The notes: generated by a model not told the origin, from the letters alone. A stretch of 64,000 nucleotides of DNA from Nitrospirota bacterium (GCA_035623825.1 DASPSR010000042.1:11669-75668), one strand, 5' to 3'; counted from the first letter of the stretch, positions 13,486 through 46,340 are shown. Numbers and translations: made by a program.

Positions 13486-13553
13486 GTGACCTCAACTACA
13501 GGATTTGGGGGACGAGGTCAAGGATACGGCCTATCCTGATTCTGACCCCCCTC

Positions 13554-15307: not shown

Positions 15308-15517
15308 ATTTCCCCCTAGTGGGGCAAGCTTAAATTTTCAGATCCAGGCGTAAACCTGGCTTAAAAAATAATGTCTAATATGCAGTGTCATGGTCTCTTT
15401 TGGCACTCCATCATCCATTTGGATTTTGAGATTTGATATTTGTAATTATCTCAGGCAGCTATTCTAATACTTCGCGATTTAGTTTTTTCCCAAATCCCCG
15501 ACCCGTGACTTCGCAAT

Positions 15518-16489: not shown

Positions 16490-16603
16490 TAATCCAAACC
16501 TCCAAAAGGATTGTCCACGTTATTTTTTTTTATGGGATTACGGGATAAAATCGGATTGACAAAAATCCTCTCAATCCCGGCGTTCCGTAAAAAGATTTTT
16601 ATC

Positions 16604-17311: not shown

Positions 17312-17350
17312 TGCTCCTTTTCATTTGTACTCGCTGCGGGGACAGGACCG

Positions 17351-29416: not shown

Positions 29417-31504
29417 TTACATCCTGAATTTCTGGATCTCATTCTTGAGCGAACCAGCCTGGTCGGCCATAATTTCCACGGCACTGTTGAGCCCAGCAGC
29501 CTGACTTGCATTTTCCTTGGCTATTTGCTTGATGCGCTCGATTGCCTTTACGATCATATTGCTGCCGGTCTGCACCTCACCTGTCGCTCTGTTCACCAGA
29601 GTGATCTTTGCGCTCATGTTCTCGACCGCCGCCGTGATGTCTTTCCCGGCCTTTGCCTGCCCTTCTGTTGATGTTCTGACAAATCGCGTGATCTCGCTCA
29701 TTTTCTCGGATGCCCGCGCAATCTGCTCACTGGCCGATTTCTGCTCATTAGCGGCCTTGGCGATCTGGAGGGTCATCCCGCTGATCCGTTCGACGGCTTC
29801 GCTTACCTGCCTGATGCTCCGCACTTGTTCTGCAGCCGCGCGGTTGATGCTCCTGCTCATGTCACGAGACTGGTCCGCCCGTTCCAGGATCTTTCGAAGT
29901 GTCTGACCCGCATCCTTGGAAAGCCGCATTCCCTCTTCCACGATAGCGACCCCTTCCTGCATGACTCCGGCGGCTACTTTGGATTCTTCCTGCACAGAAG
30001 CAATGAGATTGCCGATTTCCTGTGTTGATGCGGCCGTACGGTTCGATAGGTCGCGTATTTCCGCAGCCACCACCGAAAAACCCTTGCCGTGCTCTCCCGC
30101 CTGTGCCGCGAGGATCGCGGCATTCAGGGCAAGAAGGCCTGTCTGATCCGTAATATCCTCAATGACAGTAAGAATGCTCCCGATACTCTCGACGCGACCG
30201 ACGAGACGGTTCACCACATCGGCGGTCCGCCGCGCTGCTGCATCGATTCTGCCCATGCCCTCGATGGTCTTGTCGATAGAGTGCATGCCAAGTTGCTGGG
30301 CATCAGAGGCAACCGCCTCCGAAAGAGCAAGAGACTGTCTTGCGGTCTCCTCGACCTCTTTTACCGATGTGCTAATCTCGGACGATGACGCCGCTGTATC
30401 CGCTGCAGCAGCTGAAAGCAACTCGACGTTTCCAGCGATCTGCCGGATCGCGACGGACATCTGGGCTATAGCCGAAGTTGTTTCCTCGATAGATGCCGAA
30501 AGTTCGTGCATAGTCCGTGCCACCTCGTCCACAGAGGCGACCGTTTCGATCACGGATGAGGAGGTCTGCGTCGACGTTGCAAACAGGTCTTGAGCGGTTC
30601 CTGCGATTTCCTTGAGGGCAAAATGCATCTCGTTTACAGATGATGCCGCCTCGTCGACGGACTCGGCCTGCGTGCGGCTCCCGGTTGCTATCCGGGCGGA
30701 AGCTCCCTTGACTTCGGTTGAGACCGACTCCACATTCATCGCTGCCTGCTGTACATTTCCGATCATGCCCTTGAGTCCGGTGATCATGCGATTTAGTCCC
30801 CTCCCGAGCATCCCGAATTCGTCATGGGATGCGATGCGTACGCTCTGCGTGAGGTCTCCGGCGGCGATGTTCGATGCCACGGACACCGCTTCCTTCGTCG
30901 GCACAACGATCATCTTCCGCGCCATCATATAGACCATCGCAGCCAACGCGAGCACGATCGCAACGCTCGTTCCGAGCAGCAGGAATACTATTCCTCGGAC
31001 GTTCTGCTTCGCCCCAGTCCTCGAGAACCCCATCCAGACCGTGCCTAGCTTGGTTTCTCCGGTCTTGATGTCGACCGGGATTTCAAGGACATCGAACTGC
31101 GCCTTCACCTTGGCTGCAAGTGCGGGCGCGCTGTCCGATGTGTTCTGCAAGAGGAATTCATGCAGTTCGGGATTCTCCCGGTTGAAACTGGTTACGACAT
31201 TGTTCAAGACCGCGTCCGACGAATCCGTAACATAGGTGTAAAGCATATCCTGAGTTTTGACCGCATCGGCAACAAGGCTTTCAAGCTTTTTCATGTCTTT
31301 CTGGAGAATTGGGTCCGTTACTGCCTTGCCGAGGAACATTCCCAGATCCTTCCCGTGCGTCTCGATATGCCGGTACTGATCGGCTGACATGGTCCGGGCT
31401 ACAAAGGCCGTGCCCAGAACCATAAGCGCAAGAATAACACCGGTGATTACGACGGCGAGCTTTAAGCCCATGCTTGCCTCGATCTTTTCCTTCAGATCCA
31501 GCAT
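29417..31504 (-). CDS. methyl-accepting chemotaxis protein (2 TM, periplasmic sensor, HAMP, long signalling domain)
   Basis: Contains the HAMP sequence (AAGDLTQ) and the highly conserved MCP tip DQTGLLALNAAILAAQAGEHGKGFSVVAAEIRDLSNRTA. Confidence 0.92.
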   Translation of the reverse strand: MLDLKEKIEASMGLKLAVVITGVILALMVLGTAFVARTMSADQYRHIETHGKDLGMFLGKAVTDPILQKDMKKLESLVADAVKTQDMLYTYVTDSSDAVLNNVVTSFNRENPELHEFLLQNTSDSAPALAAKVKAQFDVLEIPVDIKTGETKLGTVWMGFSRTGAKQNVRGIVFLLLGTSVAIVLALAAMVYMMARKMIVVPTKEAVSVASNIAAGDLTQSVRIASHDEFGMLGRGLNRMITGLKGMIGNVQQAAMNVESVSTEVKGASARIATGSRTQAESVDEAASSVNEMHFALKEIAGTAQDLFATSTQTSSSVIETVASVDEVARTMHELSASIEETTSAIAQMSVAIRQIAGNVELLSAAAADTAASSSEISTSVKEVEETARQSLALSEAVASDAQQLGMHSIDKTIEGMGRIDAAARRTADVVNRLVGRVESIGSILTVIEDITDQTGLLALNAAILAAQAGEHGKGFSVVAAEIRDLSNRTAASTQEIGNLIASVQEESKVAAGVMQEGVAIVEEGMRLSKDAGQTLRKILERADQSRDMSRSINRAAAEQVRSIRQVSEAVERISGMTLQIAKAANEQKSASEQIARASEKMSEITRFVRTSTEGQAKAGKDITAAVENMSAKITLVNRATGEVQTGSNMIVKAIERIKQIAKENASQAAGLNSAVEIMADQAGSLKNEIQKFRM

Positions 31505-32097
31505 CAGATCCTCCCGAGTGCACGCACCGCATGAAGCGGGCCCGTCACGTTCCTCATCTCATGATTTCCGCGCGCATACCTCATGCGCTCTGGACGGCTG
31601 ACAATCCGAGATACTGACAGTCTGAGAAAGAGTATAAGAATGATAAAAATGGCGGGATACTCGAACAGGGCGCCCGCTGCATAGGCCGCAGGCTTGCTGT
31701 CGAGATCGGCGGGGTATACGGAGATGCGGTTTTCTCCCGGCCTTCTCTGGTCCAGAGAGATCGGAAGCGGCCCAATCGTGATGCGTTTGTCGGCGAGAAC
31801 TGGCTTTCCGATATGACCGAGCGATTTCCTGCTGATGTCGGTTACTGTCAGCTCCTGAGCATCGGGCCGAGACAGAAAATTTTGATCCATGATGTCTTTC
31901 CCGCTGAGGTTCGTCATCAGCAGATACGGCGCGGCACGCTCAGGTATGAGCTTAAAGAACTGTTCCCCATTGATCCGGGTATTTGCCAGAATATTCCGTG
32001 TCTCCGCGAAATACCGGCCAGTCCCGATCAGGCTCATGGTCACAAAAAGCCCCGAAACGGTCAGAAAAATGATGCTTTGTCGAACACCAATCTGCAT
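31504..32097 (-). CDS. hypothetical 2-TM protein with a roughly 125-aa periplasmic segment
   Basis: TM1 is IIFLTVSGLFVTMSLIG and TM2 is YPAIFIILILFLRL. I recognised no family. Its stop overlaps the ATG of the downstream MCP (TGATG at 31502-31506). Confidence 0.5.
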   Translation of the reverse strand: MQIGVRQSIIFLTVSGLFVTMSLIGTGRYFAETRNILANTRINGEQFFKLIPERAAPYLLMTNLSGKDIMDQNFLSRPDAQELTVTDISRKSLGHIGKPVLADKRITIGPLPISLDQRRPGENRISVYPADLDSKPAAYAAGALFEYPAIFIILILFLRLSVSRIVSRPERMRYARGNHEMRNVTGPLHAVRALGRI

Positions 32098-32201: not shown

Positions 32202-34295
32202 TTAAAACTTGAAACCTTGCAACTCCGCCTGGAGCGCATCTGCCCGCGACTTCAGCGTCTGCGCTGCCATATCCATCTCGACCGACACATCGACGTTTTC
32301 CCGGGTGATATTCTGGATGCGGTTGACCGCGTTGCTAATCTGCTGCGCCCCGACGCTCTGTTCTGATGTGGAGCGAGCGACCTGGGTGGCCTGCGTCTTC
32401 ACTGAATCGATGGTATTGGCAATATGCCTGCTTCCAGTGGTCTGTTCTTGGATTGCTATCTTCATCTGCCGGGTGATGTCACGCATCTTTTCCGAGGCGT
32501 TAGCTATCCGCTCGCTACCTCTCCGCTGCTCTTGCATTGCGCCTGCGATCTGCTCGATCTGGCTTGCGATACTGACAGCGGCCTCCGTGATCTGGGAAAT
32601 ACCCCTGGTCTGTTCCGCTGTCGTCCTCTCAATGGCACGGGCCATGTCCGCTGACTGCTTCGAGCTGTCCGAAACCTGCTGCAGCACGTCGCTGGTCACG
32701 TGCACGAGAGCGGAGCCGGTCTCAACGGCCTTGAGACCTCTATCCATGGCCTGCATGCTTTGTTCCGTTTCTTCCCGCACAGCGACGATCAGGCTCGTGA
32801 TCTCCTGGGTCGAGGCCGCGGTGCGCTCGGCCAGGTCCTTGATCTCTTCGGCCACCACCGCGAATCCTTTCCCGTGTTCTCCAGCCTGAGCAGCGAGAAT
32901 AGCGGCATTCAACGCGAGGAGGCTCGTCTGATCCGTTACTTCGTCAATGACCTTCAATATCTGGCCGATCTCTTGGGAGCGTTTGCCGAGGCGGTTTACC
33001 ACGTCCGCTGTCGCCTCGACAGTTTCCTTGATGTTGTTCATCCCCCGTATCGCCTCTTTTGCCGCGTTCATCCCGCGGTCCGAGGCCTCTGTCGAGACCC
33101 GTTCCGCCAGCTGGGCAGCTTCCAAAGCGCGTTGTTCGACTTCTTTCACCGTGGAACTCATCTCAGTGATGGACGACGACGTCTGTTCCGCTGATGCTGA
33201 GAGCGTCTCCGTATTTTCAGACACCTGTTTAATGGAAGCAAGCATCTGCTCGATGGACGACGCCGTGTCCTCGGCCGCCGCGGAGAGTACGCCAGCGTTT
33301 TTTGCCACCTCTTCGACCGATGAGGCCATTTCCGACGCTGACGATGAGACATCCGTTGCTGCTTGGGACATTTCACTTGCATTTTCCGCGACTCCCTTGA
33401 TCGAGGCGTTCATCTGATTCACGATCGTCGCGGTCTGTTCGGTGGCCTCCTGCTGGACCTTGGCGCCTTCACCCATCTTCACCGTGGCGCTAGTCATGAG
33501 TTTCATGGCGTCGCCCAGGCTCCCGCTCGTCTGCTTGATCTTACCAAGCATCTCCCGCAGGTTCGATGACATCGTGTTGATTGCCGACCCGAGGGACATA
33601 ATCTCGGACCCTCCCGCGGCAGTGATCTCCCGAGAGAGGTCTCCTGCGGCCATCATGGCCGCAGTCTTCGACATATCTGTTATCGGCTGAGTGATTTGCC
33701 TATCAACAAACAGGTTGACTAGAGCCAAGGCCACCAGAAAACTGATGACACCTACCACCAGGGACCACATGAGCAGGCTGTGGACCTGTCTGTTGACCGC
33801 CGACTCTTTCAACGCAATGCGGAAAACCCCGATCTTCTTTCCATCGACACTCATAAGAGGAATGACTTGCTCATAGTGTCCCCCGTGGGCATCTGAATAC
33901 GAATGGACCATGGGCGCTGTTGCCGCGATCGCGTTCCTAGTGGGCTCATCGTTTAACACCGTGCTCTCCATTGTCTTGTCGCTCGAATAGAGCACCTTGC
34001 CATCCGTGTCCAAAACCATGGCCCGCGAGAGGTCCTTGTCTTCATCCGCCAGTCCGCGAAGTTTGTCCCCCATGCCGTCAAGCGCGTTCAGGGGAAGTCC
34101 GAACCCCACGGCCTTGGTAATGTCCTTCTTGATGCCATCGGCAAGAGAAGCGGTCCTGGCGATGAGCGCTTCCTTGTACCTGCTTGTTGCACTATAAATG
34201 TTGATCAGCGTATTGAACGCCAACACCAGCAGGAGGATGCTGGACGTCACAAGCACGGCTCTGTTCTTCAGATTCATTGAGGTTAGTATTTTCAT
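32202..34295 (-). CDS. methyl-accepting chemotaxis protein (2 TM, periplasmic sensor, HAMP)
   Basis: The MCP tip is DQTSLLALNAAILAAQAGEHGKGFAVVAEEIKDLAERTA, with the HAMP sequence AAGDLSRE. Confidence 0.92.
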   Translation of the reverse strand: MKILTSMNLKNRAVLVTSSILLLVLAFNTLINIYSATSRYKEALIARTASLADGIKKDITKAVGFGLPLNALDGMGDKLRGLADEDKDLSRAMVLDTDGKVLYSSDKTMESTVLNDEPTRNAIAATAPMVHSYSDAHGGHYEQVIPLMSVDGKKIGVFRIALKESAVNRQVHSLLMWSLVVGVISFLVALALVNLFVDRQITQPITDMSKTAAMMAAGDLSREITAAGGSEIMSLGSAINTMSSNLREMLGKIKQTSGSLGDAMKLMTSATVKMGEGAKVQQEATEQTATIVNQMNASIKGVAENASEMSQAATDVSSSASEMASSVEEVAKNAGVLSAAAEDTASSIEQMLASIKQVSENTETLSASAEQTSSSITEMSSTVKEVEQRALEAAQLAERVSTEASDRGMNAAKEAIRGMNNIKETVEATADVVNRLGKRSQEIGQILKVIDEVTDQTSLLALNAAILAAQAGEHGKGFAVVAEEIKDLAERTAASTQEITSLIVAVREETEQSMQAMDRGLKAVETGSALVHVTSDVLQQVSDSSKQSADMARAIERTTAEQTRGISQITEAAVSIASQIEQIAGAMQEQRRGSERIANASEKMRDITRQMKIAIQEQTTGSRHIANTIDSVKTQATQVARSTSEQSVGAQQISNAVNRIQNITRENVDVSVEMDMAAQTLKSRADALQAELQGFKF

Positions 34296-35221
34296 TTGAT
34301 CACCTTCGTCGCGTCTGTAAGTAGATCGATGGGCACCTTGATTCCCATATCATTCGCTTCCTTGAGGTTCAGCACGAGCTCAACCAGCCGAGGGACCTGC
34401 GGGGGAATGCTCGCTGGGTTTTCGCCTTTGAGAAGACGCGCGACGATATGCGCCGCTGCTTCACCTTGTTCCACAGGGCTCGCCGCGAGCGTCAGGATAA
34501 CCCCCTTCTCAGCTGAACCGCCGGTCTGGCTGATCGTGGGTATCTTGGTTCCATGCGCCGTTTTCACGATGGTATCGATCGCCTCGTTTGCGGCCGCGCT
34601 GACAGATATGAACACTGCATCCGCCTTGCCTGCAAACACAAGCTTTCGGGCATCGTCGACCTTTTTAATCGGCATTCTCACCGTCTGGAATCCGTACTGG
34701 CTCTCAAGCTGAGCCAGCTCATCTGCCTGCTTCATGGAATCGGGTTCCGATTCATTGTAAATAATAGCGACCTTCGTGAAGGGCGTGATTTTTTTCAGGT
34801 ATTTTAACAAGCTTGTCATCGGCACCTTTGAGCTTATGCCCGTCATATTCCTTGCCGAAACACCAACTGATCCCGGATCATAGACGCCTGCATACACGAG
34901 CGGAATATCCTTTGTCTCCTTGATCGATGCGAGTGCCGCCGGCGCGCCGTAGGTCACGAGCACATTGACATCGGCCACCACCAGCTTCCGGGCTGAGTTC
35001 GTCCAGGACATCGGATCGGGCGAGGGCATCTGCAGCACCGTGTCGACCTTTCGGAAGTCGAACCCCTCCTTGGCCAGGGTGCCTACGAAGGTCTTATGCA
35101 CTTCCTGATAGTACCCGACGTTCCCGGACATGATCACGCCTACGGTCTTGTCCGCCGCCTCGACCGTCGCTGCGCAGCACACCAGCGTAATCGTTAATAA
35201 CCAGTTTAGTCGTCTCATCAT
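34292..35221 (-). CDS. periplasmic substrate-binding protein, ABC_sub_bind (PF04392-like) architecture
   Basis: It has a signal peptide (LLTITLVCCAATVEA). The body is collinear with my memory of the family: KTVGVI...YGAPAALA...DIPLVYAGVYDP...NMTGIS...KVAIIYNESEPDS...IPTIS...LNLKEANDMGIKVP. Its stop overlaps the MCP ATG (ATGA). Confidence 0.7.
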   Translation of the reverse strand: MMRRLNWLLTITLVCCAATVEAADKTVGVIMSGNVGYYQEVHKTFVGTLAKEGFDFRKVDTVLQMPSPDPMSWTNSARKLVVADVNVLVTYGAPAALASIKETKDIPLVYAGVYDPGSVGVSARNMTGISSKVPMTSLLKYLKKITPFTKVAIIYNESEPDSMKQADELAQLESQYGFQTVRMPIKKVDDARKLVFAGKADAVFISVSAAANEAIDTIVKTAHGTKIPTISQTGGSAEKGVILTLAASPVEQGEAAAHIVARLLKGENPASIPPQVPRLVELVLNLKEANDMGIKVPIDLLTDATKVIK

Positions 35222-35228
35222 CCCTCCC

Positions 35229-37187
35229 TTACCATTTCATGGACAGGGTGGCCAATAGAGTTGCAAACTCGCCGTCCTGGGTGTTGTCAATTTTATCGTC
35301 ATACTGCTGATACTGGTAGCGGATCTCTCCGTCCGTGTTCTTGCCGAGCCCCATTTGAACACCGAAAGCATAGACGGTGTCGACGACCCTCATATTCGAT
35401 AACTCAGGGATTCCTCCCACGTTGGTCACGCTGCTCGTCCCTGTAAGGCAGAAATTGCCCCGCGAGTAGCTCCTGCTTCCCGATGCCGTGAGATTCATTC
35501 TATCTATCGGAGAATAAGTCAGTGCAAGTGATCCTACGTGGGCAATGTCTGCGTAAGGGACACCTGGTTCGAGCGACAAAGCGCCTGTCCCGTCTTGAAA
35601 GGTGACGGTCTGATTGACATTGTTTTGGAAGTAGGAGTAGCTCGCCGTGATCGAAGAGCGGTTGCCGACCAAGAGCGTAACGCTGGCAAGGCCCTGATCG
35701 CGTCTGACCTCCCTGCTCCCGCCGGCCAGAGGCGCCACCAGATCATTCCGGCTCTCCCGCACAGTACTGTAACTGAGCAGGGTATTGATCCTCGTCGCAG
35801 GCGTCCAGGTGAGCGATGCCTGTCCAGACTGCGCCCGGTCAGGGTCGGTATCGTAGGCCGGGTTGTTAATCGCCGTATAAGCATAATCCCCGCGGAAGGT
35901 AAGCCTATTCATGATGCGGTACGCAAGTTCTATCCTCGCTGTTCCCTTGGTGGTCTTATCCGGCAGGTCCCAGAATGCCTGGCCGCCTGGAGGAAATGGC
36001 AGAGAGGTCCCAGGAACCCCTACGGAGCGGTCAATCATGTCCAAGACATACTGGCCCTTAAATGTCAGACGGTCGGTTGCCCGGTAACGGATTGTTCCAT
36101 CCACAACGTCCCGTGTCGAAGAGATGGCGTCCCTGACACTGTTCGGGCCACTGACTATGGTGGGGACTGGGGTTATGTTATTGACCATGCTGGGGTTGCT
36201 TTCATCCTTATCGTAGTGCCGATATTTGAGGACGAACATCACGCTGGTCACGGGCAATAACATAAGGTCGCCCCCCGCATTCCAGTATTGCACCTTCGCT
36301 CCGCTGGAGTCATTTTTTGAGTCCCCGTTCGTGACAGTACCCGCAGCAACTACTTTCCCTGAATACATCGTGTGGATCTTCACCGTATCGGACGAGGATT
36401 CAAGAGTGGGAGTTAAATTATGCGGGACCGGATTGGACCCTGGGGCGTACGTGTCGTACAGTACGTTGCTGTCGTACGATGTGAACCGCTTATCCATGTG
36501 GCTGTAATCAACTTCTACCGGTCCGAGGTGGCTGTTCGCGCCAACCGTAACCTCCCGTGTAAACCAATCGATATCCCTGGACTCTGAGATCTTGTTGAGG
36601 CCACCGGAAAATCCGCGCAAGAATATCTGCTGTATGGTCCCTTCCCGCTCGACGGTCCGCAGGTCTGCGTACAGGTGGAAAGGATAGTCCGGCGTCTTAA
36701 AGCGGATGAATCCATTCTCCAGCCTGTTCTCAGCGCCATACATGGCCCCGGGGTTTAAGTCGGTGAAGGTCGGCGTGCCTGGCGGCGCTGGTGCGGGAGG
36801 AAGATTTTCGGTTAAATGATTAAGATTATGGAACATGTCTCTCGCAACCCAGTTAAAGAGCACGATATCCTTGAAGGCGTAATCCGTCTCAACGAAGTAA
36901 TCCTTGGTATTCAAATAATAGGACTCAACTGCAACGCGGTGAGGCAGCGGGTCCCATTCCAGGTCCAGCGCGCCGATGGCAGAAGACCTGAGATAATCAT
37001 ACTCTCCGGCGTGAGCGGGATTCCCTTCCTGATCTATAGTCCGATAGCCCAGGCTGATCCTGCCTTCAAAGGCCTCCAGACGCTCCCCCGCAGCGGTCTC
37101 TGCCGTGCTTGTCCCCGAGGGTTGCTGTGCTAGAACCGGGGAGGCCCAGAGCATCAAAAATGCGATTATGAGAATGGTCTTTTTCAT
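35229..37187 (-). CDS. outer-membrane beta-barrel, MtrB/PioB-like porin candidate
   Basis: It has a signal peptide ending VLAQQ and is 652 aa long. It shows pervasive alternating-polarity strands rich in Y/T/S/G and a terminal aromatic (LSMKW). It starts 13 nt downstream of the MtrA-like decaheme gene. The family call is inferred from size, composition and synteny. Confidence 0.6.
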   Translation of the reverse strand: MKKTILIIAFLMLWASPVLAQQPSGTSTAETAAGERLEAFEGRISLGYRTIDQEGNPAHAGEYDYLRSSAIGALDLEWDPLPHRVAVESYYLNTKDYFVETDYAFKDIVLFNWVARDMFHNLNHLTENLPPAPAPPGTPTFTDLNPGAMYGAENRLENGFIRFKTPDYPFHLYADLRTVEREGTIQQIFLRGFSGGLNKISESRDIDWFTREVTVGANSHLGPVEVDYSHMDKRFTSYDSNVLYDTYAPGSNPVPHNLTPTLESSSDTVKIHTMYSGKVVAAGTVTNGDSKNDSSGAKVQYWNAGGDLMLLPVTSVMFVLKYRHYDKDESNPSMVNNITPVPTIVSGPNSVRDAISSTRDVVDGTIRYRATDRLTFKGQYVLDMIDRSVGVPGTSLPFPPGGQAFWDLPDKTTKGTARIELAYRIMNRLTFRGDYAYTAINNPAYDTDPDRAQSGQASLTWTPATRINTLLSYSTVRESRNDLVAPLAGGSREVRRDQGLASVTLLVGNRSSITASYSYFQNNVNQTVTFQDGTGALSLEPGVPYADIAHVGSLALTYSPIDRMNLTASGSRSYSRGNFCLTGTSSVTNVGGIPELSNMRVVDTVYAFGVQMGLGKNTDGEIRYQYQQYDDKIDNTQDGEFATLLATLSMKW

Positions 37188-37200
37188 TTATGAGCCTCCT

Positions 37201-38226
37201 CTACTGTATGAAATGGCCCTGGCCGCTTGGTGACGGCAGGTCCGAACCGTGTATCTGTGAATGGCAGTCCGTGCACCGCGTATAGAATGCTGTCTTCTGC
37301 GCGGCAGTCGTCGCTGCAGCCGGGGGCGCACTGACGATCGGGTGGGTCGGATGGCACTGCAGGCAGAGGAACGGCTCGCGCAGGAGGAGCAGGTTGCTGT
37401 TCACCGACCCGTGCGGCGTATGGCAGGCGCGGCAATCGTCGGTAAGGTCAGCATGCTCGTACACAAACGGGCCCTGCTTCTCCGCATGGCACTGGGTGCA
37501 GGTTGCCTTCACCGTTTCCCGCCTCAGGTTCCTCTCTCCGCCTCCGCCATGCGGATCGTGGCAGTCGGTGCAGAACACCTTCTTTTCCGGCACGGGATGG
37601 TGGTTCGGCAGGGAGAACGCAGCCTGCACGTCCTGGTGACAGCGCTCGCACATTTCTGCTGTGTCTTTGAGCTTGACCTTGAGGTTGTGTCCTCCGTGGA
37701 TCTTATGGCAGTCGGAACACGACACGTCGGCAACGTTGTGGATGCTCGAATTCCAGTTATGCAGGTTGAACGTCGCGTTGGCCGTATGGCACTTCAGGCA
37801 GATAAGTGATTTTGCCTGGGCGGGCAGGTTCTTGATGTCGATTAGGGTCTTGAAGTCGCAGGCCGTCTTCTTTCCGGCCTTGGCATCGGCAGCGAGCCTC
37901 TGCGGTGTCAGAGGATCTATGGCGAGGCTGCCCGGACCGTGGCAGCTCTCGCAGTTCACCAGCGGCAGACCCGATTCCCTCGAGAGCTGAGCGCCCATGG
38001 TCGAGAGGTCGAAATCGCGCCTCTTCTGGTCGTGCTCGTGGCATGCCTTGAGGCAGTTATCCGTGCCTACATAGTCGGCGTCGAGCCGGCCGGCAATCAT
38101 CTTCTCGTAATCCTTGATCGGGAAAATCGGCCTTGCTTCCTTGAGAGCCGCACATCCAGCGGCAAAGAAGGCGCCGAGAATCCCGATTGCCAGCCATTTC
38201 TTCCATGTGAATAGTCGTTCCATCAT
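37201..38226 (-). CDS. periplasmic decaheme c-type cytochrome, MtrA/DmsE-like
   Basis: A 341-aa protein with a signal sequence. I counted exactly 10 CxxCH motifs: CLKACH, CESCH, CLKCH, CSDCH, CERCH, CTDCH, CTQCH, CRACH, CLQCH, CTDCH. Size and heme number match MtrA-type proteins (about 330 aa, 10 hemes). Confidence 0.8.
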   Translation of the reverse strand: MMERLFTWKKWLAIGILGAFFAAGCAALKEARPIFPIKDYEKMIAGRLDADYVGTDNCLKACHEHDQKRRDFDLSTMGAQLSRESGLPLVNCESCHGPGSLAIDPLTPQRLAADAKAGKKTACDFKTLIDIKNLPAQAKSLICLKCHTANATFNLHNWNSSIHNVADVSCSDCHKIHGGHNLKVKLKDTAEMCERCHQDVQAAFSLPNHHPVPEKKVFCTDCHDPHGGGGERNLRRETVKATCTQCHAEKQGPFVYEHADLTDDCRACHTPHGSVNSNLLLLREPFLCLQCHPTHPIVSAPPAAATTAAQKTAFYTRCTDCHSQIHGSDLPSPSGQGHFIQ

Positions 38227-38252
38227 CTAGCCTCCTTTACCTAAGCGTTGGG

Positions 38253-40187
38253 TTAGGGCCGTTCTGCCTCGCTTCCGAATCCACCCGGGTATGCGCCATT
38301 CCAGAGCGGCCCGTTTGGAAGAAGATATGCCTTGGCTCCCTGGCACCAGGCGGGCGGTGTGCCGCCGCTGCACGCGGTGCTGAGAGTCGCACCGACCGAA
38401 TAGTTCATTATCCCGTCATCGAGCCAGTCGAGAGAGTCGTAGATCAATCTTTTCGCAAACCTGCTGTTATGCACATAGGCGCCCCATTCATGAGTGAGGA
38501 GGCTGAAGTTAAACGCGGCACCCAGATTGTTTTTGCCGGTCGTGTTGCCCGTTATATCCGCATCACCGGCGGAAAGCCAGTTTTTGTTGGCGAAATACGG
38601 ATAATTGGTGGTGAATGTATAACCGGATATAATGAGCTCTGCTTGGAGTGCCTGCAAGGCAGAATCGAAGTTGTTCTTTTCGTCCTGCACTACCGTACCA
38701 AAATCTATGCTGGAACCGGCATGGCAGGCAAAACAAACCGCGCTCGATACAACGATGTTCCCCATATTCGTACTGATTGGCTCAAAGAGATGGTTGCCAC
38801 TCATGCCCGTCCGGTCCATATGGCATCCGACGCAAGGGCCGTTCGAGCCGGTGTTCGGGGCATTTGGCGTGCCGATCTGATTGTGCTTGAACGAAGCGGG
38901 GTCAGCATAGTTCCTCCCGGCATATACGTACGGCGTGCCCTTGAACATCGTTCCGCCTGCGGAGAGGTAGTGTCCGTCAGGGAAACTGAAATTGCTGAAA
39001 TTCACGGTTGCTGTCTGTCCGGTATTCAAATCGCTGACCGCCGTGCCGTTTACGCGCCCCGTGTGGCAGGGAATACAGACATTCGAGATGGATAGATCAG
39101 GGTACTGGAAATATGCTGTAGAGCTCGGGGCGGAGCCGATCGTATACGTTGCCTTATAGGCTCCCGGATTCCTGAGGTCACCCGCATTGTCTGTGTGACA
39201 GCCTCTGCACTCGAGCATTTCGGGCTTGAAGTTCAAAGCAGAGGGTACAAGCGCTATGCCGCCGGCTACAATGGTTGCGGCCAATGATTGGTTTCCCGCC
39301 TGAAGCGCATCGGCATACGTCGCAAAACCGGTTGTCGTATGACAGCGCTGACAGGCGGTCCTGCTCGCCAGCGACCAGTCGTAATGAGCCCAGGCATCTG
39401 CCGCAAGCATATCCGCATGCTTCGAACTGGCCCAATCTCTGTTGATGTCGGCATTCTTATGCGGATTGTGGCAGTCGGTACAGACGGTATCGCTCGCAAA
39501 ATTCATGGCATAACCGGTAATATTATTGCTATTTTGACTAGTTCCTGACGCCCCCCAGTTGCCGGGGGTGGCAAAGTGCGTGTCAGTGATAACGTATTGA
39601 GTTCCATTGGGGGCAGGTGCCCCTGCTAAATGGGTCGGCGAAGCATTAAGAGCTCCTGTTGAGGTATCGAGCAGATTATGACAAGCCGTGCACATGACGA
39701 ATTGTCCAGAGACCGCTACGGCGCCGAAGCTTGTCCCCGTCGTGTTCGAAAGGAGGGATATCGGCCCGGCCCCGCCGGCATCTGCATGCAGGCTCCCGGG
39801 ACCGTGGCAAGCCTCGCAGCCGACCACCGGACGAGGAACATTCCCCGTGTATCCTGCTGTGAGATTGTTGCTGTCCCCGTCAGGGTCATGACAACTGATG
39901 CAGCCTGAGCCGCCTGCCTGGACAAGACCCACTGTCGGAACGCCTGCACTGTACAGGTTACCTGCAGGATCGAGATTCCCGTGTTTGCTCATAAGCCAGT
40001 CGGCTGTTTCGGTGGTATGACATCCTGCGCACCTATTCAGTCCTGCAGTCGTAGTCGCTGCAGAAAGAACGCTTGAAGTCGCCGGCCCGATAGCCGAATC
40101 GGACTTGCCGCAACCTCCGAGCATGGCGATACATGCAAGCATGAAAAGAAAAACGAGGACTGTTCTGCTTCCCTTCTTTGTATTCAT
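38253..40187 (-). CDS. decaheme c-type cytochrome lipoprotein (MtrC/OmcA-like by size, lipobox and position)
   Basis: The lipobox is IAMLGGC. The protein is 644 aa. I counted 10 CxxCH motifs: CAGCH, CISCH, CEACH, CTACH, CTDCH, CQRCH, CRGCH, CIPCH, CVGCH, CFACH. Confidence 0.75.
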   Translation of the reverse strand: MNTKKGSRTVLVFLFMLACIAMLGGCGKSDSAIGPATSSVLSAATTTAGLNRCAGCHTTETADWLMSKHGNLDPAGNLYSAGVPTVGLVQAGGSGCISCHDPDGDSNNLTAGYTGNVPRPVVGCEACHGPGSLHADAGGAGPISLLSNTTGTSFGAVAVSGQFVMCTACHNLLDTSTGALNASPTHLAGAPAPNGTQYVITDTHFATPGNWGASGTSQNSNNITGYAMNFASDTVCTDCHNPHKNADINRDWASSKHADMLAADAWAHYDWSLASRTACQRCHTTTGFATYADALQAGNQSLAATIVAGGIALVPSALNFKPEMLECRGCHTDNAGDLRNPGAYKATYTIGSAPSSTAYFQYPDLSISNVCIPCHTGRVNGTAVSDLNTGQTATVNFSNFSFPDGHYLSAGGTMFKGTPYVYAGRNYADPASFKHNQIGTPNAPNTGSNGPCVGCHMDRTGMSGNHLFEPISTNMGNIVVSSAVCFACHAGSSIDFGTVVQDEKNNFDSALQALQAELIISGYTFTTNYPYFANKNWLSAGDADITGNTTGKNNLGAAFNFSLLTHEWGAYVHNSRFAKRLIYDSLDWLDDGIMNYSVGATLSTACSGGTPPAWCQGAKAYLLPNGPLWNGAYPGGFGSEAERP

Positions 40188-40292: not shown

Positions 40293-40955
40293 CTACGCCC
40301 CTACCGCTTTGTGCAAGTCCAGCAGGATGTAGAGCCTGTCGTCTTTTCGCGCTATCCCCTTTAGGAACTCTGCACCTTGTTCGATGGTCTCCGGTGCAGG
40401 ACGGACGGCGTCCGGTGAGATCCGTACCACCCCGGTCACCTGATCCACGAGAATTCCCGCGTTCTCGTCATCTGGGCTTATAATGATAATCCGCGCCTTC
40501 TCGTCCCTCACGGCGGGCGGAAGGCCTAGCCGCCTTCCGAGATCCAGTACTGGCAGGACCGTTCCCCGGATCGATGTCACCCCGATGACATGTGACGGTG
40601 AATTGGGGACCATGGTGAGCTCCCTGCTTTTCAGCACTTCCTGTACATCATCTACGGGCAGGACATACTCTTCACTGCCGAGGCGGAACGAGAGCATCTC
40701 GATCTCCTGTGTGTGAATTCCACTTGCCACTCCTTCTTCAGGCTCCGGCGTGTCCCTTCTTCCGATTTCTTCCACTGCGGCGTGTTTGGCCGCTTCCGGT
40801 TGTTTCCCGACAGCTGGAGATGACGGCACAGGGCTCGCGCTGCCAGAGGGCTTTTCCGTCTGGGCAGGTTGAGCAGGGGCCGTTTCTTCGGTCTCGAGTT
40901 TGTTTTGTGTGCGTGTCCACTCCGCTGCCTTTTTCCGCGCTGCCAAGATATCCAT
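40293..40955 (-). CDS. cheW: CheW coupling protein with an 80-aa low-complexity N-terminal extension
   Basis: The C-terminal core is MLSFRLGSEEYVLPVDDVQEVL...IGVTSIRGTVLPVLDLGRRLG. The N-terminus is P/A/E/S-rich. Confidence 0.85.
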   Translation of the reverse strand: MDILAARKKAAEWTRTQNKLETEETAPAQPAQTEKPSGSASPVPSSPAVGKQPEAAKHAAVEEIGRRDTPEPEEGVASGIHTQEIEMLSFRLGSEEYVLPVDDVQEVLKSRELTMVPNSPSHVIGVTSIRGTVLPVLDLGRRLGLPPAVRDEKARIIIISPDDENAGILVDQVTGVVRISPDAVRPAPETIEQGAEFLKGIARKDDRLYILLDLHKAVGA

Positions 40956-40984: not shown

Positions 40985-41866
40985 TTACAGAGAGCAGAGG
41001 ACATGGGACATATGGGAAACCATGGCCCCTCTTCTCTTTGCCTCATGCCGAATGCCCTTTCCGTCCTTCGCCCGCCCTTCTCTCACTATGCTCTCGATGA
41101 TCTCCTGGTCTATTATCTTGAGGCCCTTGCCGAAACCTTCAACGAGCGCATTGCCCGCAATGGTGTTGATAATGCGCGGAACGCCTCCTGAACGCTCGAA
41201 CAAAGCCGTGTTCGCTTCTTCATCAAAGAGCAGCGTTTCCCTCCCCGCTACCCGGAGCCGGTGCTTCACGTACTCTCGTGTCTCGTCCTCGTCAAGCGGG
41301 CCCAGGTGATACTGCATTCCGATCCTCTGCCGAAGCGCCCTGTACTGGCGTCGGTCGAGCCGCTCCCCGAGCTCTGTCTGGCCGATAAGCAGGATCGCGA
41401 GAAGGTTGCGGTCATCGAGCTGGAAATTCGTAAGCAACCGCAGTTCCTCGAACGTGGCCTTGCCGGAGATAAGCTGCGCTTCGTCAATGATGACCACCGG
41501 TCGCTTCCCGGCCTCGAAGAACTCATACAGCTTTGCATTGATTCCCTCAATGATGCTGTGGCAATCCCGGCTCGAGCACTCCATCTCGAGGCCGAGGGCC
41601 ACGGTTCTCAGAAGATGTAGCGGCGAAAGCCGCGGGTTGATTATCAGCATCGGATGAAAGCTCCCGTCCAGCGAATCGATGAGCGCACGGGAAATCATCG
41701 TCTTGCCCGTACCGATATCGCCGGTCAACAGGGCAATGTCCTGGTCCTCTGCCGCAAGCTGTAGCCGGGCGAGGGCCTCGGCATGCTTGGCGCTCTGGTA
41801 GAAAAAACGCGGGTCAGGCGTCTTTTTGAACGGCTTTTCGCTCAGTCCGTAAAATTCTTCATACAT
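40985..41866 (-). CDS. ExeA/GspA/MshM-like AAA ATPase
   Basis: The N-terminus is YEEFYGLSEKPFKKTPDPRFFYQSAKHAEALARL. Walker A is GDIGTGKT and Walker B is VVIIDEAQ. Confidence 0.75.
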   Translation of the reverse strand: MYEEFYGLSEKPFKKTPDPRFFYQSAKHAEALARLQLAAEDQDIALLTGDIGTGKTMISRALIDSLDGSFHPMLIINPRLSPLHLLRTVALGLEMECSSRDCHSIIEGINAKLYEFFEAGKRPVVIIDEAQLISGKATFEELRLLTNFQLDDRNLLAILLIGQTELGERLDRRQYRALRQRIGMQYHLGPLDEDETREYVKHRLRVAGRETLLFDEEANTALFERSGGVPRIINTIAGNALVEGFGKGLKIIDQEIIESIVREGRAKDGKGIRHEAKRRGAMVSHMSHVLCSL

Positions 41867-41998: not shown

Positions 41999-44008
41999 CT
42001 ACTGTCTGCTGACAACGACCGATCTTTTGAGAGCCCCTTCGATGAGTGATTCAACATCCAGCACGAGCACAACGCCGCGTCTGTCTCCCAGCTCCGTGGC
42101 GCCAGCAATGCCCGGTATCTCCGATATCCGCTTTCCAAGAGGCTTGATGACGATCTCCTGCTGGTCCCGGAGACCGTCAACCATGATCCCCAAGCGGCGC
42201 TCTGCGAGACCCACGAGGATGAGGTAGAATGAGTTGCTGCTGGGCTTCGGGGTCAGTTTGAACGCCTTCGTAAGCCGATAGAGCGGTATCGTGTCGCCAC
42301 GGATGGCCATCACCTCGCGTGTCTCCACGGTCTCTACCTGGTCATGCGTCGCCTGAATGATCTCGAGCACGGCGCTGAGAGGCACGGCAAACACCTCTCC
42401 GCCGGCCTCCACTACGAGTGCCTTGATGATGGCAAGGGTTATGGGAAGCGTGATGATGAATTTCGTTCCCATACCCGTCTCGGTATCGATATCAATCATA
42501 CCGGACAGCTTGGAGACATTCCGTTTCACCACGTCCAAACCCACACCACGGCCCGAGATTTCGGTTACGGTCTCGCGGGTGGTGAAGCCGGGAAGGAAAA
42601 TGATATCCAGAATCTCTTTGCGGTCGGTCTCAGGATCAAGGCCATGGTCCGAGGGGAGAACCGCTTTCTGCACTGCCTTGGCCAGGATATTCTTCGTTTC
42701 TATCCCCGCTCCGTCGTCTTCGACGGTGATCACCACATGGTTGCCCTTGGGGAATGCCGCGAGCTTTACCACACCGTGTTCCGGCTTTCCCTGCTGTTTC
42801 CGTATTTCGGGGAGTTCGATGCCGTGGTCAATGGCATTCCTTATGAGGTGCATGAGCGGGTCGGCAAGGTCCTCGATCATAAGCTTGTCGAGTTCGGTCT
42901 CTTCTCCCGAAAGATGGAGATCGATCTCCTTTCCCACTTCTTTCGCGTACTTTCTGACCATCTGTGAAAGGCGCGTAAAAATCTGGCCGATTGGAACCAT
43001 TCTAACCTCAAGGATCCCCTCCTGGAGGTCGTTCAGCTTCCTCTCCAGGCTGCGCTGCGCCTTGTGCAGATCCACGGAAAGTCCTGCGAATCCGTGCATG
43101 GATCTCAACTCACGCGCGATGCGACCGATGATGTTCTTGGTGAGGTGCATCTCACCGACTACGTTCATAAGGCCGTCAAGCTTGTAGATATCCACGCGGA
43201 CAGTATTGCTCACCGACTTGATCGCACCCGTTTCCGATACCGCCCGTTGCTCTTCCACCTTCCGCCCCTCGACGTACGTTATCGGGTCGAAGGACACCTT
43301 TGGCATATTGATCGCCGACATGAGCTCGTCACGTCCCATTGCGGTGCCGGCCACAATGGTAAATCCGATGCCGCCTGCGGCCGCGCCGGCCGTGGGCAGG
43401 GTGCAGATAATTTCAGCGTTCTTTTTGAGCACATCATTGAGGTTCTTGATGCCTTTTTCGAAATCGGTAAGCTCGAACAACGCCTTAATGGTGAAAAGGT
43501 TTTTGTGCTCCCTGATATTTTCCTTGAGTCGGTATTCTTCGTATTCCGTAAGGACTTGGAGGAGCCCGCGGTCAATTTCTATCTGATCCAGGATAGACCG
43601 GTCAGCGGCTGTGGAAGGCTTGGCTTTGAGGATTCCGTCGATGCGGTCAAGCGCGGCCGCTATGTCTTCCGGCTGCTCCTTGTTGCCCACTTGCTGCACA
43701 TGCCGTCCGAGCAGGGCCACGGTCTCGAATAGCACATCGAGGACGTCCCGGCTGAGCGCTGTTTTCCCGAGACGGACCTCGTCGAGGAGGAACTCCAGTT
43801 TGTGTGAGAGCTCTGAGGGGGCCTTGAGCCCGAACATCCCGGCGAGTCCCTTGAAGGAATGGATTGCGCGAAAAAGGCCGTTCACCAGATCCGGAGCCGA
43901 GCGCCCTGCGGCCTGTTCGGACTCAAGCGAGAGCATCGTCTGGTTGGCCGTTTCGAGAATGTCTTCCGCCTCGGCTAGAAAATCCTTTATAGAACGGTCT
44001 GATTTCAA
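41999..44008 (-). CDS. cheA: chemotaxis histidine kinase
   Basis: The Hpt motif is FRAIHSFKGLAGMFG. The HATPase block is DHGIE...GRGVGLDVV. A C-terminal CheW-like domain is present. Confidence 0.93.
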   Translation of the reverse strand: MKSDRSIKDFLAEAEDILETANQTMLSLESEQAAGRSAPDLVNGLFRAIHSFKGLAGMFGLKAPSELSHKLEFLLDEVRLGKTALSRDVLDVLFETVALLGRHVQQVGNKEQPEDIAAALDRIDGILKAKPSTAADRSILDQIEIDRGLLQVLTEYEEYRLKENIREHKNLFTIKALFELTDFEKGIKNLNDVLKKNAEIICTLPTAGAAAGGIGFTIVAGTAMGRDELMSAINMPKVSFDPITYVEGRKVEEQRAVSETGAIKSVSNTVRVDIYKLDGLMNVVGEMHLTKNIIGRIARELRSMHGFAGLSVDLHKAQRSLERKLNDLQEGILEVRMVPIGQIFTRLSQMVRKYAKEVGKEIDLHLSGEETELDKLMIEDLADPLMHLIRNAIDHGIELPEIRKQQGKPEHGVVKLAAFPKGNHVVITVEDDGAGIETKNILAKAVQKAVLPSDHGLDPETDRKEILDIIFLPGFTTRETVTEISGRGVGLDVVKRNVSKLSGMIDIDTETGMGTKFIITLPITLAIIKALVVEAGGEVFAVPLSAVLEIIQATHDQVETVETREVMAIRGDTIPLYRLTKAFKLTPKPSSNSFYLILVGLAERRLGIMVDGLRDQQEIVIKPLGKRISEIPGIAGATELGDRRGVVLVLDVESLIEGALKRSVVVSRQ

Positions 44009-44099: not shown

Positions 44100-44471
44100 C
44101 TATTCACCCTCCAACGCCTTGTTCACTGCAGCCATTAGATCTTCCTTCTTGAAAGGTTTAACTACATATCCGGTAGCCCCGAGCGCTATGCCCCTTTTTT
44201 GGTCTTCCTCGCTCTTTTCGGTGCTCACGATGATTAGGGGAATGTCCTTATAAGCGGCATTCGACTTTACAAAGCTGATCAACTCAAGGCCGTTGATGTC
44301 GGGCATATTGATGTCAGTGATTATCAGGTTGAAGCGTCGTGTGGGAAGGGTTTTGAGGGCTTCAAAGCCGTTCCCGGCTTCCACCGCAAAGAACTCTCCC
44401 ATTTCCTCGAGAGAGACCCGCATCATCGAGCGTATGGCCTTGGAATCCTCCACGATAAGGACGTTCTTCAT
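44100..44471 (-). CDS. cheY: CheY-like single-domain response regulator (intact copy)
   Basis: A 123-aa receiver domain with IVEDS...LIITDINMPDINGLE...IIVSTE...KPF. Confidence 0.9.
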   Translation of the reverse strand: MKNVLIVEDSKAIRSMMRVSLEEMGEFFAVEAGNGFEALKTLPTRRFNLIITDINMPDINGLELISFVKSNAAYKDIPLIIVSTEKSEEDQKRGIALGATGYVVKPFKKEDLMAAVNKALEGE

Positions 44472-44738: not shown

Positions 44739-45016
44739 TAAATCAATTTGTTACAGCGCGTGAAACGCTTTCCCCAGTGTTGGAAAATACTACACTGATG
44801 GAATCTTAACGGACAAAATTTGACAGAGCAGTCTTGGCTCTTTAAAAATCTCGGGGCGCTTTTCGAGAGAACAGCGGCTCCCGGTTGAGCTTGGCTAAAC
44901 TGGGTTCAGATATTTCTTGGAAGAGCAGGGAAACAGCTTCGTATTCAATCGCGATCACTTGGTGACGGTGTACGTCGTATGCGACGGAACAGGCGTTACA
45001 AAGCTGATTGGAAAAA

Positions 45017-45198
45017 GCCGTTGATGTCGGGCATATTGATGTCAGTGATGATCAGGTTGAAGCGGTTTGCGGGAAGAGTTTTGAGGGCTTCAAAGCCGTT
45101 CCCGGCTTCCACCGCAAAGAACTCTCCCGTTTCCTCGAGAGAGACCCGCATCATCGAGCGTATGGCCTCGAATCCTCCACGATAAAGACGTTCTTCAT
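45017..45198 (-). pseudogene. cheY fragment: frameshifted and 3'-truncated
   Basis: It starts with ATGA overlapping the stop of the upstream gene. A 1-nt deletion relative to copy A (GGCCTCGAATCC versus GGCCTTGGAATCC) gives MKNVFIVEDSRPYAR*. Homology ends after the DINMPDING codons. Confidence 0.8.
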
Positions 45199-45333
45199 TT
45201 TCGCTCCTTCTGGAGGTCGGCAAGTCTCTTTTCCAGCAGGGCCTTTTCCAGGGCCATCCCTGCCTGGTTCATGAATATCTCGAGAGTATCCACGCCTTTG
45301 ATCGGTTTCTGATTAGGCAAGTTGTCACCATAT
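45017..45333. repeat. segmental duplication, copy B (truncated cheY fragment + genuine 3' end of the DUF4388 gene)
   Basis: See copy A. The offset between copies is 727-728 nt. Confidence 0.85.
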
Positions 45334-46340
45334 ACAACCAGCGCTATCTTTCCGTCCACAATCAGCGGTATTGCGAGTACCATATCGGGCTTGACCCCGC
45401 CGAGCTCATTGACGAGGTAGTTGTTGCTCTCATTCGATGCAAGCTGACCGAGAAAACTTCGTCGGTTTTCGATCACCGTAAGGAACAGCGACGGTTGATT
45501 GAGCGGGATTTTGATATTGCGGACGACCTGGTCGGCGGACATGTTCTTGAGGTCTATCCCGAACTGGCCGAGACCTCGAACCTCGTCCTTCTTCACCATG
45601 AACAAGATAGCACGGTTGACAACCTCGCTCGCATACCGCAGGATGAGGAGCGTCACCTCTGCCGTTGCTGTGGGGAACCTTAGTTCGTCGAACATGGACT
45701 TGAGCACAGTGATCTCTCTGCGCGGTACTTCTGTCTCTATGCGGGTGAGGAACTCTTCTTTGGCCGGTTCGTAGCTGACGCGGTGAGTGGCCGGAGCTTT
45801 TGATGACGGGGCGGCTGTCTTGTGCATGCCTTTCCGCTTCTCATCGAGGATCCGCGTTCCCTCCATGAGGAGATACTCGGCACTGATGCCGGACTTGAGC
45901 AGGAACTCCTGGGTGTCTATCTCGAAATTGTCCTTTGAGGCTATATCTCCGAGCTCGAAGTTGAAAAAGCCCTCTTCCCACGCAAGCAGATCATAGATGA
46001 TCTCCTCAATCTGTTTACGGACGACGGTCTCGAGCGTTTGTGCGGGCACGACCCCCATCTCCACGAGGATCATGCCGAGTGGCTTGTCGACTTTCTCCTT
46101 TTGCAGCGCCAGCGCCTGGGACAGCGCCGTTTCGGTCAGCATTCCCTGCGAGACAAGGATATTTCCAAGGGAATCGCGGATACTGTCACTAGCGGCCTGA
46201 ATTACCTGGCCGCCCTTGAATACGACCATCCCTGTTCCCTTGCGGCTACGCACAAGGAGGGTGCCGGTTTTCTTACTCAGACTAATGATCTGGAAGATAT
46301 CGGGTAAAGCAAGATCTTCCAGCCTGCCAACAAGGCTCAT
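45195..46340 (-). CDS. DUF4388 (PatA-N-like) + tandem MshEN/T2SSE_N-like motifs + GAF-like C-terminal domain
   Basis: The N-terminus LEDLALPDIFQIISLSKKTGTLLV...VVFKGGQVIQA is the DUF4388 pattern. SLGNILVSQGMLTETALSQALALQ and PLGMILVEMGVVPAQTLETVVRKQ fit xLGxx(LVI)(LVI)xxG(LVI)(LVI)xxxxLxxxLxxQ. Confidence 0.7.
   Translation of the reverse strand: MSLVGRLEDLALPDIFQIISLSKKTGTLLVRSRKGTGMVVFKGGQVIQAASDSIRDSLGNILVSQGMLTETALSQALALQKEKVDKPLGMILVEMGVVPAQTLETVVRKQIEEIIYDLLAWEEGFFNFELGDIASKDNFEIDTQEFLLKSGISAEYLLMEGTRILDEKRKGMHKTAAPSSKAPATHRVSYEPAKEEFLTRIETEVPRREITVLKSMFDELRFPTATAEVTLLILRYASEVVNRAILFMVKKDEVRGLGQFGIDLKNMSADQVVRNIKIPLNQPSLFLTVIENRRSFLGQLASNESNNYLVNELGGVKPDMVLAIPLIVDGKIALVVYGDNLPNQKPIKGVDTLEIFMNQAGMALEKALLEKRLADLQKERK

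Follow-up and report, generated by a model that had tools for sequence, protein, structure and literature searches.

An MtrAB-like porin-cytochrome gene trio within a chemosensory operon of a Nitrospirota bacterium

The gene trio, its operon and the related loci

The genes considered here lie on a contig assigned to a Nitrospirota bacterium (GCA_035623825.1, DASPSR010000042.1:11669-75668), from which a 64-kb stretch, called the window throughout, was analysed. They encode a decaheme lipoprotein (C644), an MtrA-like decaheme cytochrome (A341) and a heme-less outer-membrane barrel (B652), and a first-pass annotation, made from the sequence alone, had described them as a complete MtrC/MtrA/MtrB-like set. 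The three open reading frames (ORFs) occupy exactly the positions it gave and are all on the minus strand (Table 1), but their neighbours were absent from that account, and these are chemotaxis-type genes that flank the trio on both sides. Along the minus strand the order is PATAN, CheY, CheA, AAA_22 ATPase, CheW, the trio, a periplasmic solute-binding protein (SBP), a methyl-accepting chemotaxis protein (MCP), a 197-aa ORF, a further MCP, CheW, a HEAT-repeat protein, CheR and CheB. All of these genes are co-directional, those from CheY to CheB with gaps of at most 146 nt, and the Pfam matches for CheA, CheW, MCP, CheY, CheR and CheB all fall within this one cluster. The spacings between C644, A341, B652, the SBP and the first MCP (MCP1) are 26, 13, 7 and -4 nt. 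In other words, the trio sits mid-way in a single co-directional chemosensory operon and is not a free-standing respiratory operon.

The GC content of the trio (0.55-0.57) is the same as that of the neighbouring genes, and on this count horizontal transfer of the trio leaves no signal. Besides C644 and A341, no ORF with heme motifs was found in the window. Scans of the trio region for sigma-70 promoters and for terminators gave matches at the level expected from shuffled sequences, and sigma-54 motif matches showed no enrichment (22 against 30±6 expected from shuffles), so that these scans are uninformative either way.

Relatives of the locus were examined as contig flanks. A genome scan, with one genome per species, gave 29 loci, and a metagenome scan with a broader barrel alignment gave 80 more; dereplication at 95% nucleotide identity yielded 95 clusters, with barrel identities of 28-100%, and identical proteins were present on soil and peat metagenome contigs. 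The MtrA-like gene lies directly upstream of the barrel gene in all 69 of 69 clusters, an SBP gene of family PF04392 lies directly downstream of it in 70 of 71, and a transmembrane sensor follows the SBP in 49 of 50, this sensor being an MCP in 41 clusters and a HAMP-GAF histidine kinase in 8, the latter always accompanied by an additional PhnD-type SBP. The stop of the SBP gene and the start of the next gene overlap by exactly 4 nt (-4 nt) in 72 of 83 loci. On the other hand, a C644-type cytochrome is encoded in only 23 of 50 clusters, and CheA lies upstream of the barrel in only 22 of 40. The conserved unit is the decaheme, the barrel, the PF04392 SBP and a two-transmembrane sensor; a surface cytochrome and Che genes are extras that a locus may lack.

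This unit was found in three architectures: i) embedded among Che genes as in the window, with four such loci lacking the outer cytochrome; ii) as decaheme-barrel-SBP-MCP, at times followed by a sigma-54 regulator and a kinase; and iii) as decaheme-barrel-SBP-PhnD SBP-histidine kinase. The flanks differ completely by type, with Phe-tRNA synthetase genes in one locus (L036), ClpA/ClpS in another (L037) and Che genes in the window. Because the same core recurs in three signalling architectures, its linkage argues for selection and not for a frozen neighbourhood. It is very improbable that the genes have no functional link and that their adjacency is simply a gene order inherited within one phylum. 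It is true that 28 of the 29 genome loci are labelled as Nitrospirota, Nitrospirae or Thermodesulfovibrionales metagenome-assembled genomes (MAGs), and that the LolA-YajQ-PATAN genes upstream are also syntenic in Che-type loci; however, the four-gene core persists amid wholly changed flanks (L036, L037 and the window) and is kept down to 28% barrel identity, with its 4-nt overlaps conserved.

Some of these loci call for separate remarks. The lone genome locus with another label, a 'Betaproteobacteria bacterium' MAG (L014, JBLMWN010000142.1), is likely mis-binned or mislabelled, since its cluster genes are 51-81% identical to those of the window and stand in the same order. A second copy of the PF04392 SBP is present in L013:11941-17000, L054 and L116, and in L013 its partner is the middle MCP; it seems that duplication takes in an SBP together with its MCP. 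The long-read MAG contigs of L005/L010, L017 and L035 have fragmented or stop-containing ORFs for the cytochrome or the barrel, and frameshift errors of long-read assembly are a likelier cause than genuine pseudogenes.

Kinship of the three proteins

Judged by its profile matches, A341 is a bona fide MtrA/DmsE-family decaheme. It scores 251.4 bits on TIGR03508 (cutoff 192.2) over residues 54-331, covering positions 1-257 of the 258 in the profile, and in a phmmer search its residues 53-332 match MtrA of Shewanella baltica (chain A of 6R2Q) with E=1.2e-42; on the model of GSU2203 (OmcK), NF041028, it reaches 245.1 bits and stays under the cutoff of 325. Many of its homologs are named 'DmsE family decaheme c-type cytochrome' by their sources. 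The ten CxxCH motifs first counted in this protein are in fact nine, accompanied by one CxxxCH (CLKACH, residue 58). The total of ten heme sites still holds, because in the phmmer alignment to 6R2Q_A the CLKACH site is in register with the first CxxCH of MtrA, CLMCH. The suggestion that FFAAGC at its N-terminus might be a lipobox has gained ground: it agrees with the PROSITE pattern for lipoproteins, and all 117 full-length homologs (63-100% identity) have the lipobox (..FAAGC), CX3CH as their first heme site and the 9+1 arrangement of sites, which marks these as features of the clade. The 32-residue linker after the lipidated Cys is conserved like the heme core (mean column conservation 0.84 vs 0.83). 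A341 is accordingly predicted, from this motif pattern, to be lipid-anchored, and not a soluble signal peptidase I substrate like Shewanella MtrA.

B652 has a signal peptide and ends in ...SMKW, so that both the signal peptide and the final W reported earlier are borne out; it contains a single Cys and no heme motif. Its match to PF11854 (27.7 bits, gathering cutoff 23) is confined to residues 289-448, its score on TIGR03509 is 30.9 bits against a cutoff of 240, and its best named match is the GSU2204 (OmcL) family NF041027 (120 bits, E=1e-34, cutoff 350), although the CxxCH and Sec motifs that mark this family are both absent from B652. A profile search with the barrel among 1.84 billion representatives gave 454 clusters, 221 of them at E<=1e-30, and twelve distant clusters of the family, among them P0464, P0475 and P0478, have one CxxCH at around residue 200, in the manner described for OmcL/GSU2204. 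Because of these distant members, B652 is classed from its sequence relationships as a heme-less relative of OmcL-type barrels. In P0409 (996 aa), also of this family, the N-terminus is extended by 380 residues that are free of heme motifs.

Against PDB sequences B652 gave no match, either as a single sequence or as a 22-sequence profile, so its link to MtrB comes from fold comparison. In the AlphaFold2 model (pLDDT 64) there are about 25-26 long strands and a poorly modelled N-terminus; its top Foldseek match in the PDB is MtrB (6R2Q_B, E=1.4e-9, TM 0.40), and the next matches, 22-strand TonB-dependent receptors, are about a thousand-fold worse (E>=2e-6). B652 is probably a distant member of the MtrB/PioB superfamily, which upholds the reading of the barrel as an MtrB counterpart as far as the fold goes, while in sequence it stands nearer to OmcL. 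The modelled strand number, compared with 26 in MtrB, would be large enough to hold a decaheme, and by analogy B652 would house A341.

In C644 the ten CxxCH motifs and the lipobox (MLGGC, Cys26, by a PROSITE-type pattern) were recovered as first described. Across its family (29 homologs) the ten CxxCH motifs and ten further His are invariant, and Cys26 is at least 90% conserved; since both sets of ten are invariant, the protein fits ten bis-His electron-transfer hemes. Kinship with MtrC, the first of the three likenesses that had been proposed, did not survive. No match to MtrC, MtrF, OmcA or UndA was obtained in the PDB with the single sequence at E<=1 or with a 29-sequence profile at E<=10, and the PDB sequence matches that were obtained are to cytochrome c554 (residues 46-141, E=2.7e-7), to OcwA (6I5B, residues 461-547, E=1.3e-7) and, weakly, to NrfA. 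[quoted passage not shown] The four-domain build of MtrC, with two beta-barrel domains flanking two pentaheme domains, was not found. A match to PF22113, the MtrC/MtrF pentaheme domain, exceeds its cutoff at 53 bits; it was treated as multiheme cross-matching and not as kinship, because it consists of five short stretches lying on heme motifs and because A341 matches PF22113 too. Instead, C644 combines c554-like and NrfA-like heme modules with a C-terminal helix bundle, and OcwA is likewise described as joining c554 and NrfA modules to a three-helix bundle (PMC6703420). By both sequence and fold, C644 looks like a cytochrome of the NrfA/OcwA type which is not MtrC-like and is presumed to be the surface cap. 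It differs from OcwA of Thermincola (6I5B), OmhA (6QVM) and NrfA/c554 in that each of its hemes has a candidate distal His, with no obvious open catalytic heme, and in being a Gram-negative lipoprotein encoded beside an MtrAB-like pair.

Taken together with Shewanella MtrCAB (6R2Q), the likeness lies in the gene order of cytochrome, decaheme and barrel, in the sizes, in an MtrA homolog with ten heme sites in register, in a large barrel whose fold is nearest to MtrB, and in an outer cytochrome that is a decaheme lipoprotein. The differences are that the outer cytochrome is of the NrfA/OcwA type, unrelated to MtrC/OmcA and without beta-barrel domains, that the MtrA-like protein has CX3CH for its heme 1 site and is predicted to be a lipoprotein, that the barrel is too diverged for a PDB sequence match to MtrB, and that the genes lie inside a Che operon with an SBP and an MCP after the barrel. 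To our knowledge, mtrCAB is not genetically linked to chemotaxis genes. It was initially proposed that this is a Shewanella-type MtrCAB respiratory complex which ties Wood-Ljungdahl C1 metabolism to extracellular electron exchange, and we consider this improbable. The order and sizes of the genes do mimic mtrCAB, and the acetyl-CoA synthase, MetF, MetV and selenocysteine-containing (Sec) formate dehydrogenase genes invoked for it are all present on the same contig stretch. However, C644 falls outside the MtrC family, the barrel is nearer to OmcL than to MtrB, the Wood-Ljungdahl genes are at least 16 kb away while the trio's own operon is chemosensory, and co-residence in a genome is no evidence of metabolic coupling.

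Two further systems share the decaheme-barrel core. OmcK/OmcL of Geobacter sulfurreducens (GSU2203/GSU2204), with their HotSeep-1 homologs, are the best named matches and have the same two components, but the window proteins score under the NCBIfam cutoffs (325 and 350), the window barrel lacks CXXCH and Sec, and an outer cytochrome is added. The Fe(II)-oxidising MtoAB and PioAB resemble those loci, about half of the total, in which the decaheme and barrel occur without an outer cytochrome (for example L015, L020, L021 and L063), whereas no partner genes of the MtoC/MtoD/CymA or PioC type are present here.

Possible roles of the conduit

Since what is conserved is the four-part unit and not an 'Mtr trio', the related loci provide evidence that the conduit and the sensor work together. 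Going one step further, we infer, tentatively and with somewhat less than an even chance of being right, that the porin-cytochrome conduit is the extracellular-redox arm of a signalling pathway. In such a pathway electrons would pass through C644 and A341 between the periplasm and an external partner, which might be a mineral, a pool of humics or shuttles, Fe(II) or a second cell. In the periplasm, the conduit's state or activity would then be passed on via the SBP to the chemoreceptor or, in other lineages, to the histidine kinase. From there the signal would travel through CheA, CheW and the ATPase to CheY and the cyclic-di-GMP-binding PATAN protein, with adaptation by CheR/CheB, and the output would be changed motility or attachment. 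The PATAN protein carries an MshEN-type cyclic-di-GMP-binding motif (NF053729, 46.6 bits vs cutoff 38), which suggests a cyclic-di-GMP input or output for the Che pathway. A more specific proposal, that the decaheme-barrel pair, with its optional cap, is a dedicated 'electroreceptor' whose purpose is signalling and not respiration, is possible but on the unlikely side; such a receptor would signal to MCP arrays or kinases, by way of the SBP adaptor, whether an external electron donor or acceptor is present or what its redox state is.

Precedents in Shewanella and Geobacter make a sensory or behavioural role plausible by analogy. It has been shown that the congregation of Shewanella around minerals and electrodes requires MtrBC/OmcA together with a Cache MCP (SO_2240) and CheA-3 (PMC5789149), and this congregation, or electrokinesis, offers a functional precedent in which outer-membrane cytochromes are required for a Che-dependent response to insoluble acceptors. 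Its genes are scattered and the sensing is thought to be indirect (energy taxis), whereas in the window a single operon joins the conduit to the chemoreceptor genes by translational coupling. The Esn cluster of Geobacter resembles the window, by gene order only, in the unusual succession of CheA, AAA ATPase and CheW (esnC GSU2222, GSU2221, esnB GSU2220), and also in having a cyclic-di-GMP link (here the PATAN/MshEN-type motif) and in its association with organisms that can use electron acceptors outside the cell; mutants in esn fail with electrodes, though not with Fe(III) oxide. The genes esnC, GSU2221 and esnB belong to the delta-proteobacterial 'beta group' of Che clusters (PMC2577667), which in Geobacter are described as being without mcp genes and in which no conduit has been reported, whereas the window has both.

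A substantial possibility, although short of probable, is that the trio is a respiratory or energy-conserving conduit for extracellular electron transfer (EET), OmcKL/MtrAB-like, that merely shares its operon with an SBP-dependent chemoreceptor system. It would be used for mineral reduction, for Fe(II) or electrode oxidation or for interspecies transfer, and any coupling to the chemoreceptors would be behavioural, in the style of energy taxis, with no direct relay, and would bring cells to places, or let them settle there, where the conduit serves them. The assignments to the MtrA family and the MtrB superfamily speak for such a role, and so do the closest named relatives, as OmcK/OmcL are upregulated on hematite and magnetite and have been proposed as a conduit for direct interspecies electron transfer in HotSeep-1. 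The resemblance of the SBP to small-ligand binders, the sensors without redox cofactors and the situation in Shewanella, where EET and taxis are functionally linked with no physical relay known, are all in keeping with it. Nevertheless, EET by itself leaves unexplained why the SBP and sensor are attached so regularly (70 of 71 and 49 of 50 clusters), in three architectures and with a conserved overlap. About half of the loci do without the cell-surface cytochrome, a protein that matters when Shewanella respires minerals, and no quinol dehydrogenase or other inner-membrane quinol oxidoreductase and no further cytochromes are encoded in the 64-kb window.

It could also be envisaged that the SBP and sensor form a TorT/TorS-like pair whose chief task would be to turn expression of the neighbouring conduit genes on and off according to a ligand in the periplasm, an idea to which we give little credence. 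Sensors encoded beside their target operons are common, torTSR-torCAD being one example, and in some loci HAMP-GAF histidine kinases or a sigma-54 response regulator do follow the module. But the sensor is an MCP in the window and in 41 of 50 loci, CheA/CheY with CheR/CheB constitute a non-transcriptional output, and the sensor genes, instead of forming a divergent regulatory unit, are found downstream of the conduit genes on what appears to be one transcript.

Several observations weigh against the conduit being the redox arm of a signalling pathway. No CxxCH motif was found in the SBP, in either MCP, in the 197-aa ORF or in any Che protein, and the MCPs, MCP1 included, have neither Cys nor heme motif, so that the receiving side shows no sign of a redox cofactor. 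The solved and named relatives of the SBP (PDB 3LKV, 3LFT and 6HNI; a TrpX-like NCBIfam match of 122 bits, below cutoff) are TrpX-like, and this fits ordinary small-ligand chemosensing, TrpX-like binding proteins being binders of aromatic amino acids. A periplasmic input domain shared by the MCP-type and kinase-type sensors was looked for and rejected (hhalign probability 8%, with only the second transmembrane helix and HAMP aligned). One locus (L022) has the decaheme-barrel pair without SBP or sensor, followed by HflX and heme-biosynthesis genes. To this it must be added that the loci were found via the barrel and come nearly all from one phylum, so their counts are not phylogenetically independent, that the host is an uncultured Nitrospirota bacterium, and that the models of B652 and C644 are of low to moderate confidence.

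As to novelty, the MtrA-family decaheme, the OmcL-related barrel and the OcwA/NrfA-type cytochrome are already known kinds of protein, of which those in the window are new members or variants. What appear to be undescribed in the literature searched are the near-invariant, translationally coupled linkage of porin-cytochrome, SBP and sensor, including its insertion into a Che operon, and the partnership between an MtrAB-like core and a surface cytochrome of the NrfA/OcwA type. No account of an MtrAB/OmcKL module coupled to Che genes, an SBP or a kinase, whether in Nitrospirota or elsewhere, was found in this search, which covered few subscription journals and is weak evidence. These findings bear on how bacteria detect insoluble or extracellular redox partners, such as minerals, electrodes and syntrophic cells. 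For Shewanella and Geobacter, what ties outer-membrane cytochromes to Che-type signalling is known solely through genes dispersed in the genome and through phenotypes. In the loci described here the tie is physical, in that the conduit, the candidate periplasmic adaptor and the sensor are translationally coupled and co-inherited across about 95 loci and three architectures, and they provide a small, defined gene set for a direct test of 'sensing through the conduit'. Genes of this kind are automatically annotated as DmsE or MtrB-type, and surveys that report 'dissimilatory iron reduction' potential in Nitrospirota MAGs probably draw on them; part of this iron-reduction signal may be sensory, not respiratory. 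The pairing of an MtrAB-like core with an NrfA/OcwA-type cytochrome adds to the evidence that such conduits are modular.

Remaining genes of the window

Table 1. Positions of the trio, its operon partners and the formate dehydrogenase genes, counted from the first letter of the window.
Feature	Position	Strand	Description
C644	38253..40187	-	644 aa; decaheme lipoprotein, presumed outer cap, NrfA/OcwA/c554 type
A341	37201..38226	-	341 aa; MtrA/DmsE-family decaheme by profile match, predicted lipoprotein, CxxxCH at first heme site
B652	35229..37187	-	652 aa; heme-less outer-membrane barrel, MtrB/PioB superfamily, OmcL (GSU2204)-related branch
PF04392 periplasmic SBP	34292..35221	-	PF04392 E=1e-37; 4-nt overlap with MCP1
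MCP1	32202..34295	-	Two-transmembrane chemoreceptor; weak periplasmic sCache_3_2, HAMP, MCP signalling domain
197-aa ORF	31504..32097	-	Truncated N-terminal remnant of a second, PhnD-domain-fused MCP
MCP2	29417..31504	-	Second two-transmembrane chemoreceptor; HAMP and MCPsignal
CheW2	28805-29332	-	Pfam match
HEAT-repeat protein	26824-28818	-	664 aa; NblB/CpcE-like, between CheW2 and CheR
CheR	25945-26823	-	Pfam match
CheB	24730-25821	-	Pfam match
CheW1	40293-40955	-	Pfam match; directly upstream of the trio
AAA_22/ExeA-like ATPase	40985-41866	-	TIGR03015-like, 227 bits, below cutoff; ExeA/PEP-CTERM-associated type
CheA	41999-44008	-	Pfam match
CheY	44100-44471	-	Pfam match
PATAN/DUF4388 protein	45195..46340	-	PF14332; cluster head, conserved in relatives
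Sec-containing formate dehydrogenase alpha	513-3203	-	About 890 aa, N-terminal Fe-S domains
NuoF-like flavoprotein subunit	3207-5054	-	Adjoins the Sec formate dehydrogenase gene

Over 167 aa, the 197-aa ORF between the two chemoreceptor genes shares 50% identity with the N-terminal part of a 924-aa MCP (L005:15125-17899); its truncation is identical in three independent assemblies, and in relatives the whole receptor, of roughly 920 aa with a PhnD-type binding domain at its C-terminus, is intact. At the downstream end of the operon the CheW2, HEAT, CheR and CheB genes follow one another at -14, 0 and 123 nt, and their order is kept in Nitrospirota relatives; a HEAT-repeat protein in this position presumably parallels Cpc7 of the Myxococcus Che7 system. 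At the other end, the 723-nt intergenic stretch upstream of cheY contains a 52-aa ORF (44996-45154, minus strand) that shares 91% identity with CheY residues 16-62 and looks like a recent partial duplication or pseudogene fragment of CheY.

The Wood-Ljungdahl genes lie within 5840-19453 and encode acetyl-CoA synthase/CO dehydrogenase, both subunits of the corrinoid iron-sulfur protein, AcsE, CooC, MetF, MetV and an HdrA-MvhD-like protein; between them and the trio there are thyX, panB, folE, the gene for 5-formyl-tetrahydrofolate cyclo-ligase and an RlmN-like gene. The formate dehydrogenase gene has an in-frame TGA at codon 347, within 'CARL-U-HSATV', and is split by an ordinary ORF caller. 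The HdrA-MvhD-like protein (17351-19453, minus strand) is a 700-aa HdrA-like flavoprotein fused to an MvhD-like domain and is encoded directly upstream of MetV/MetF, an arrangement which we take to be akin to that of the Hdr-coupled methylene-tetrahydrofolate reductases of some acetogens and sulfate reducers.

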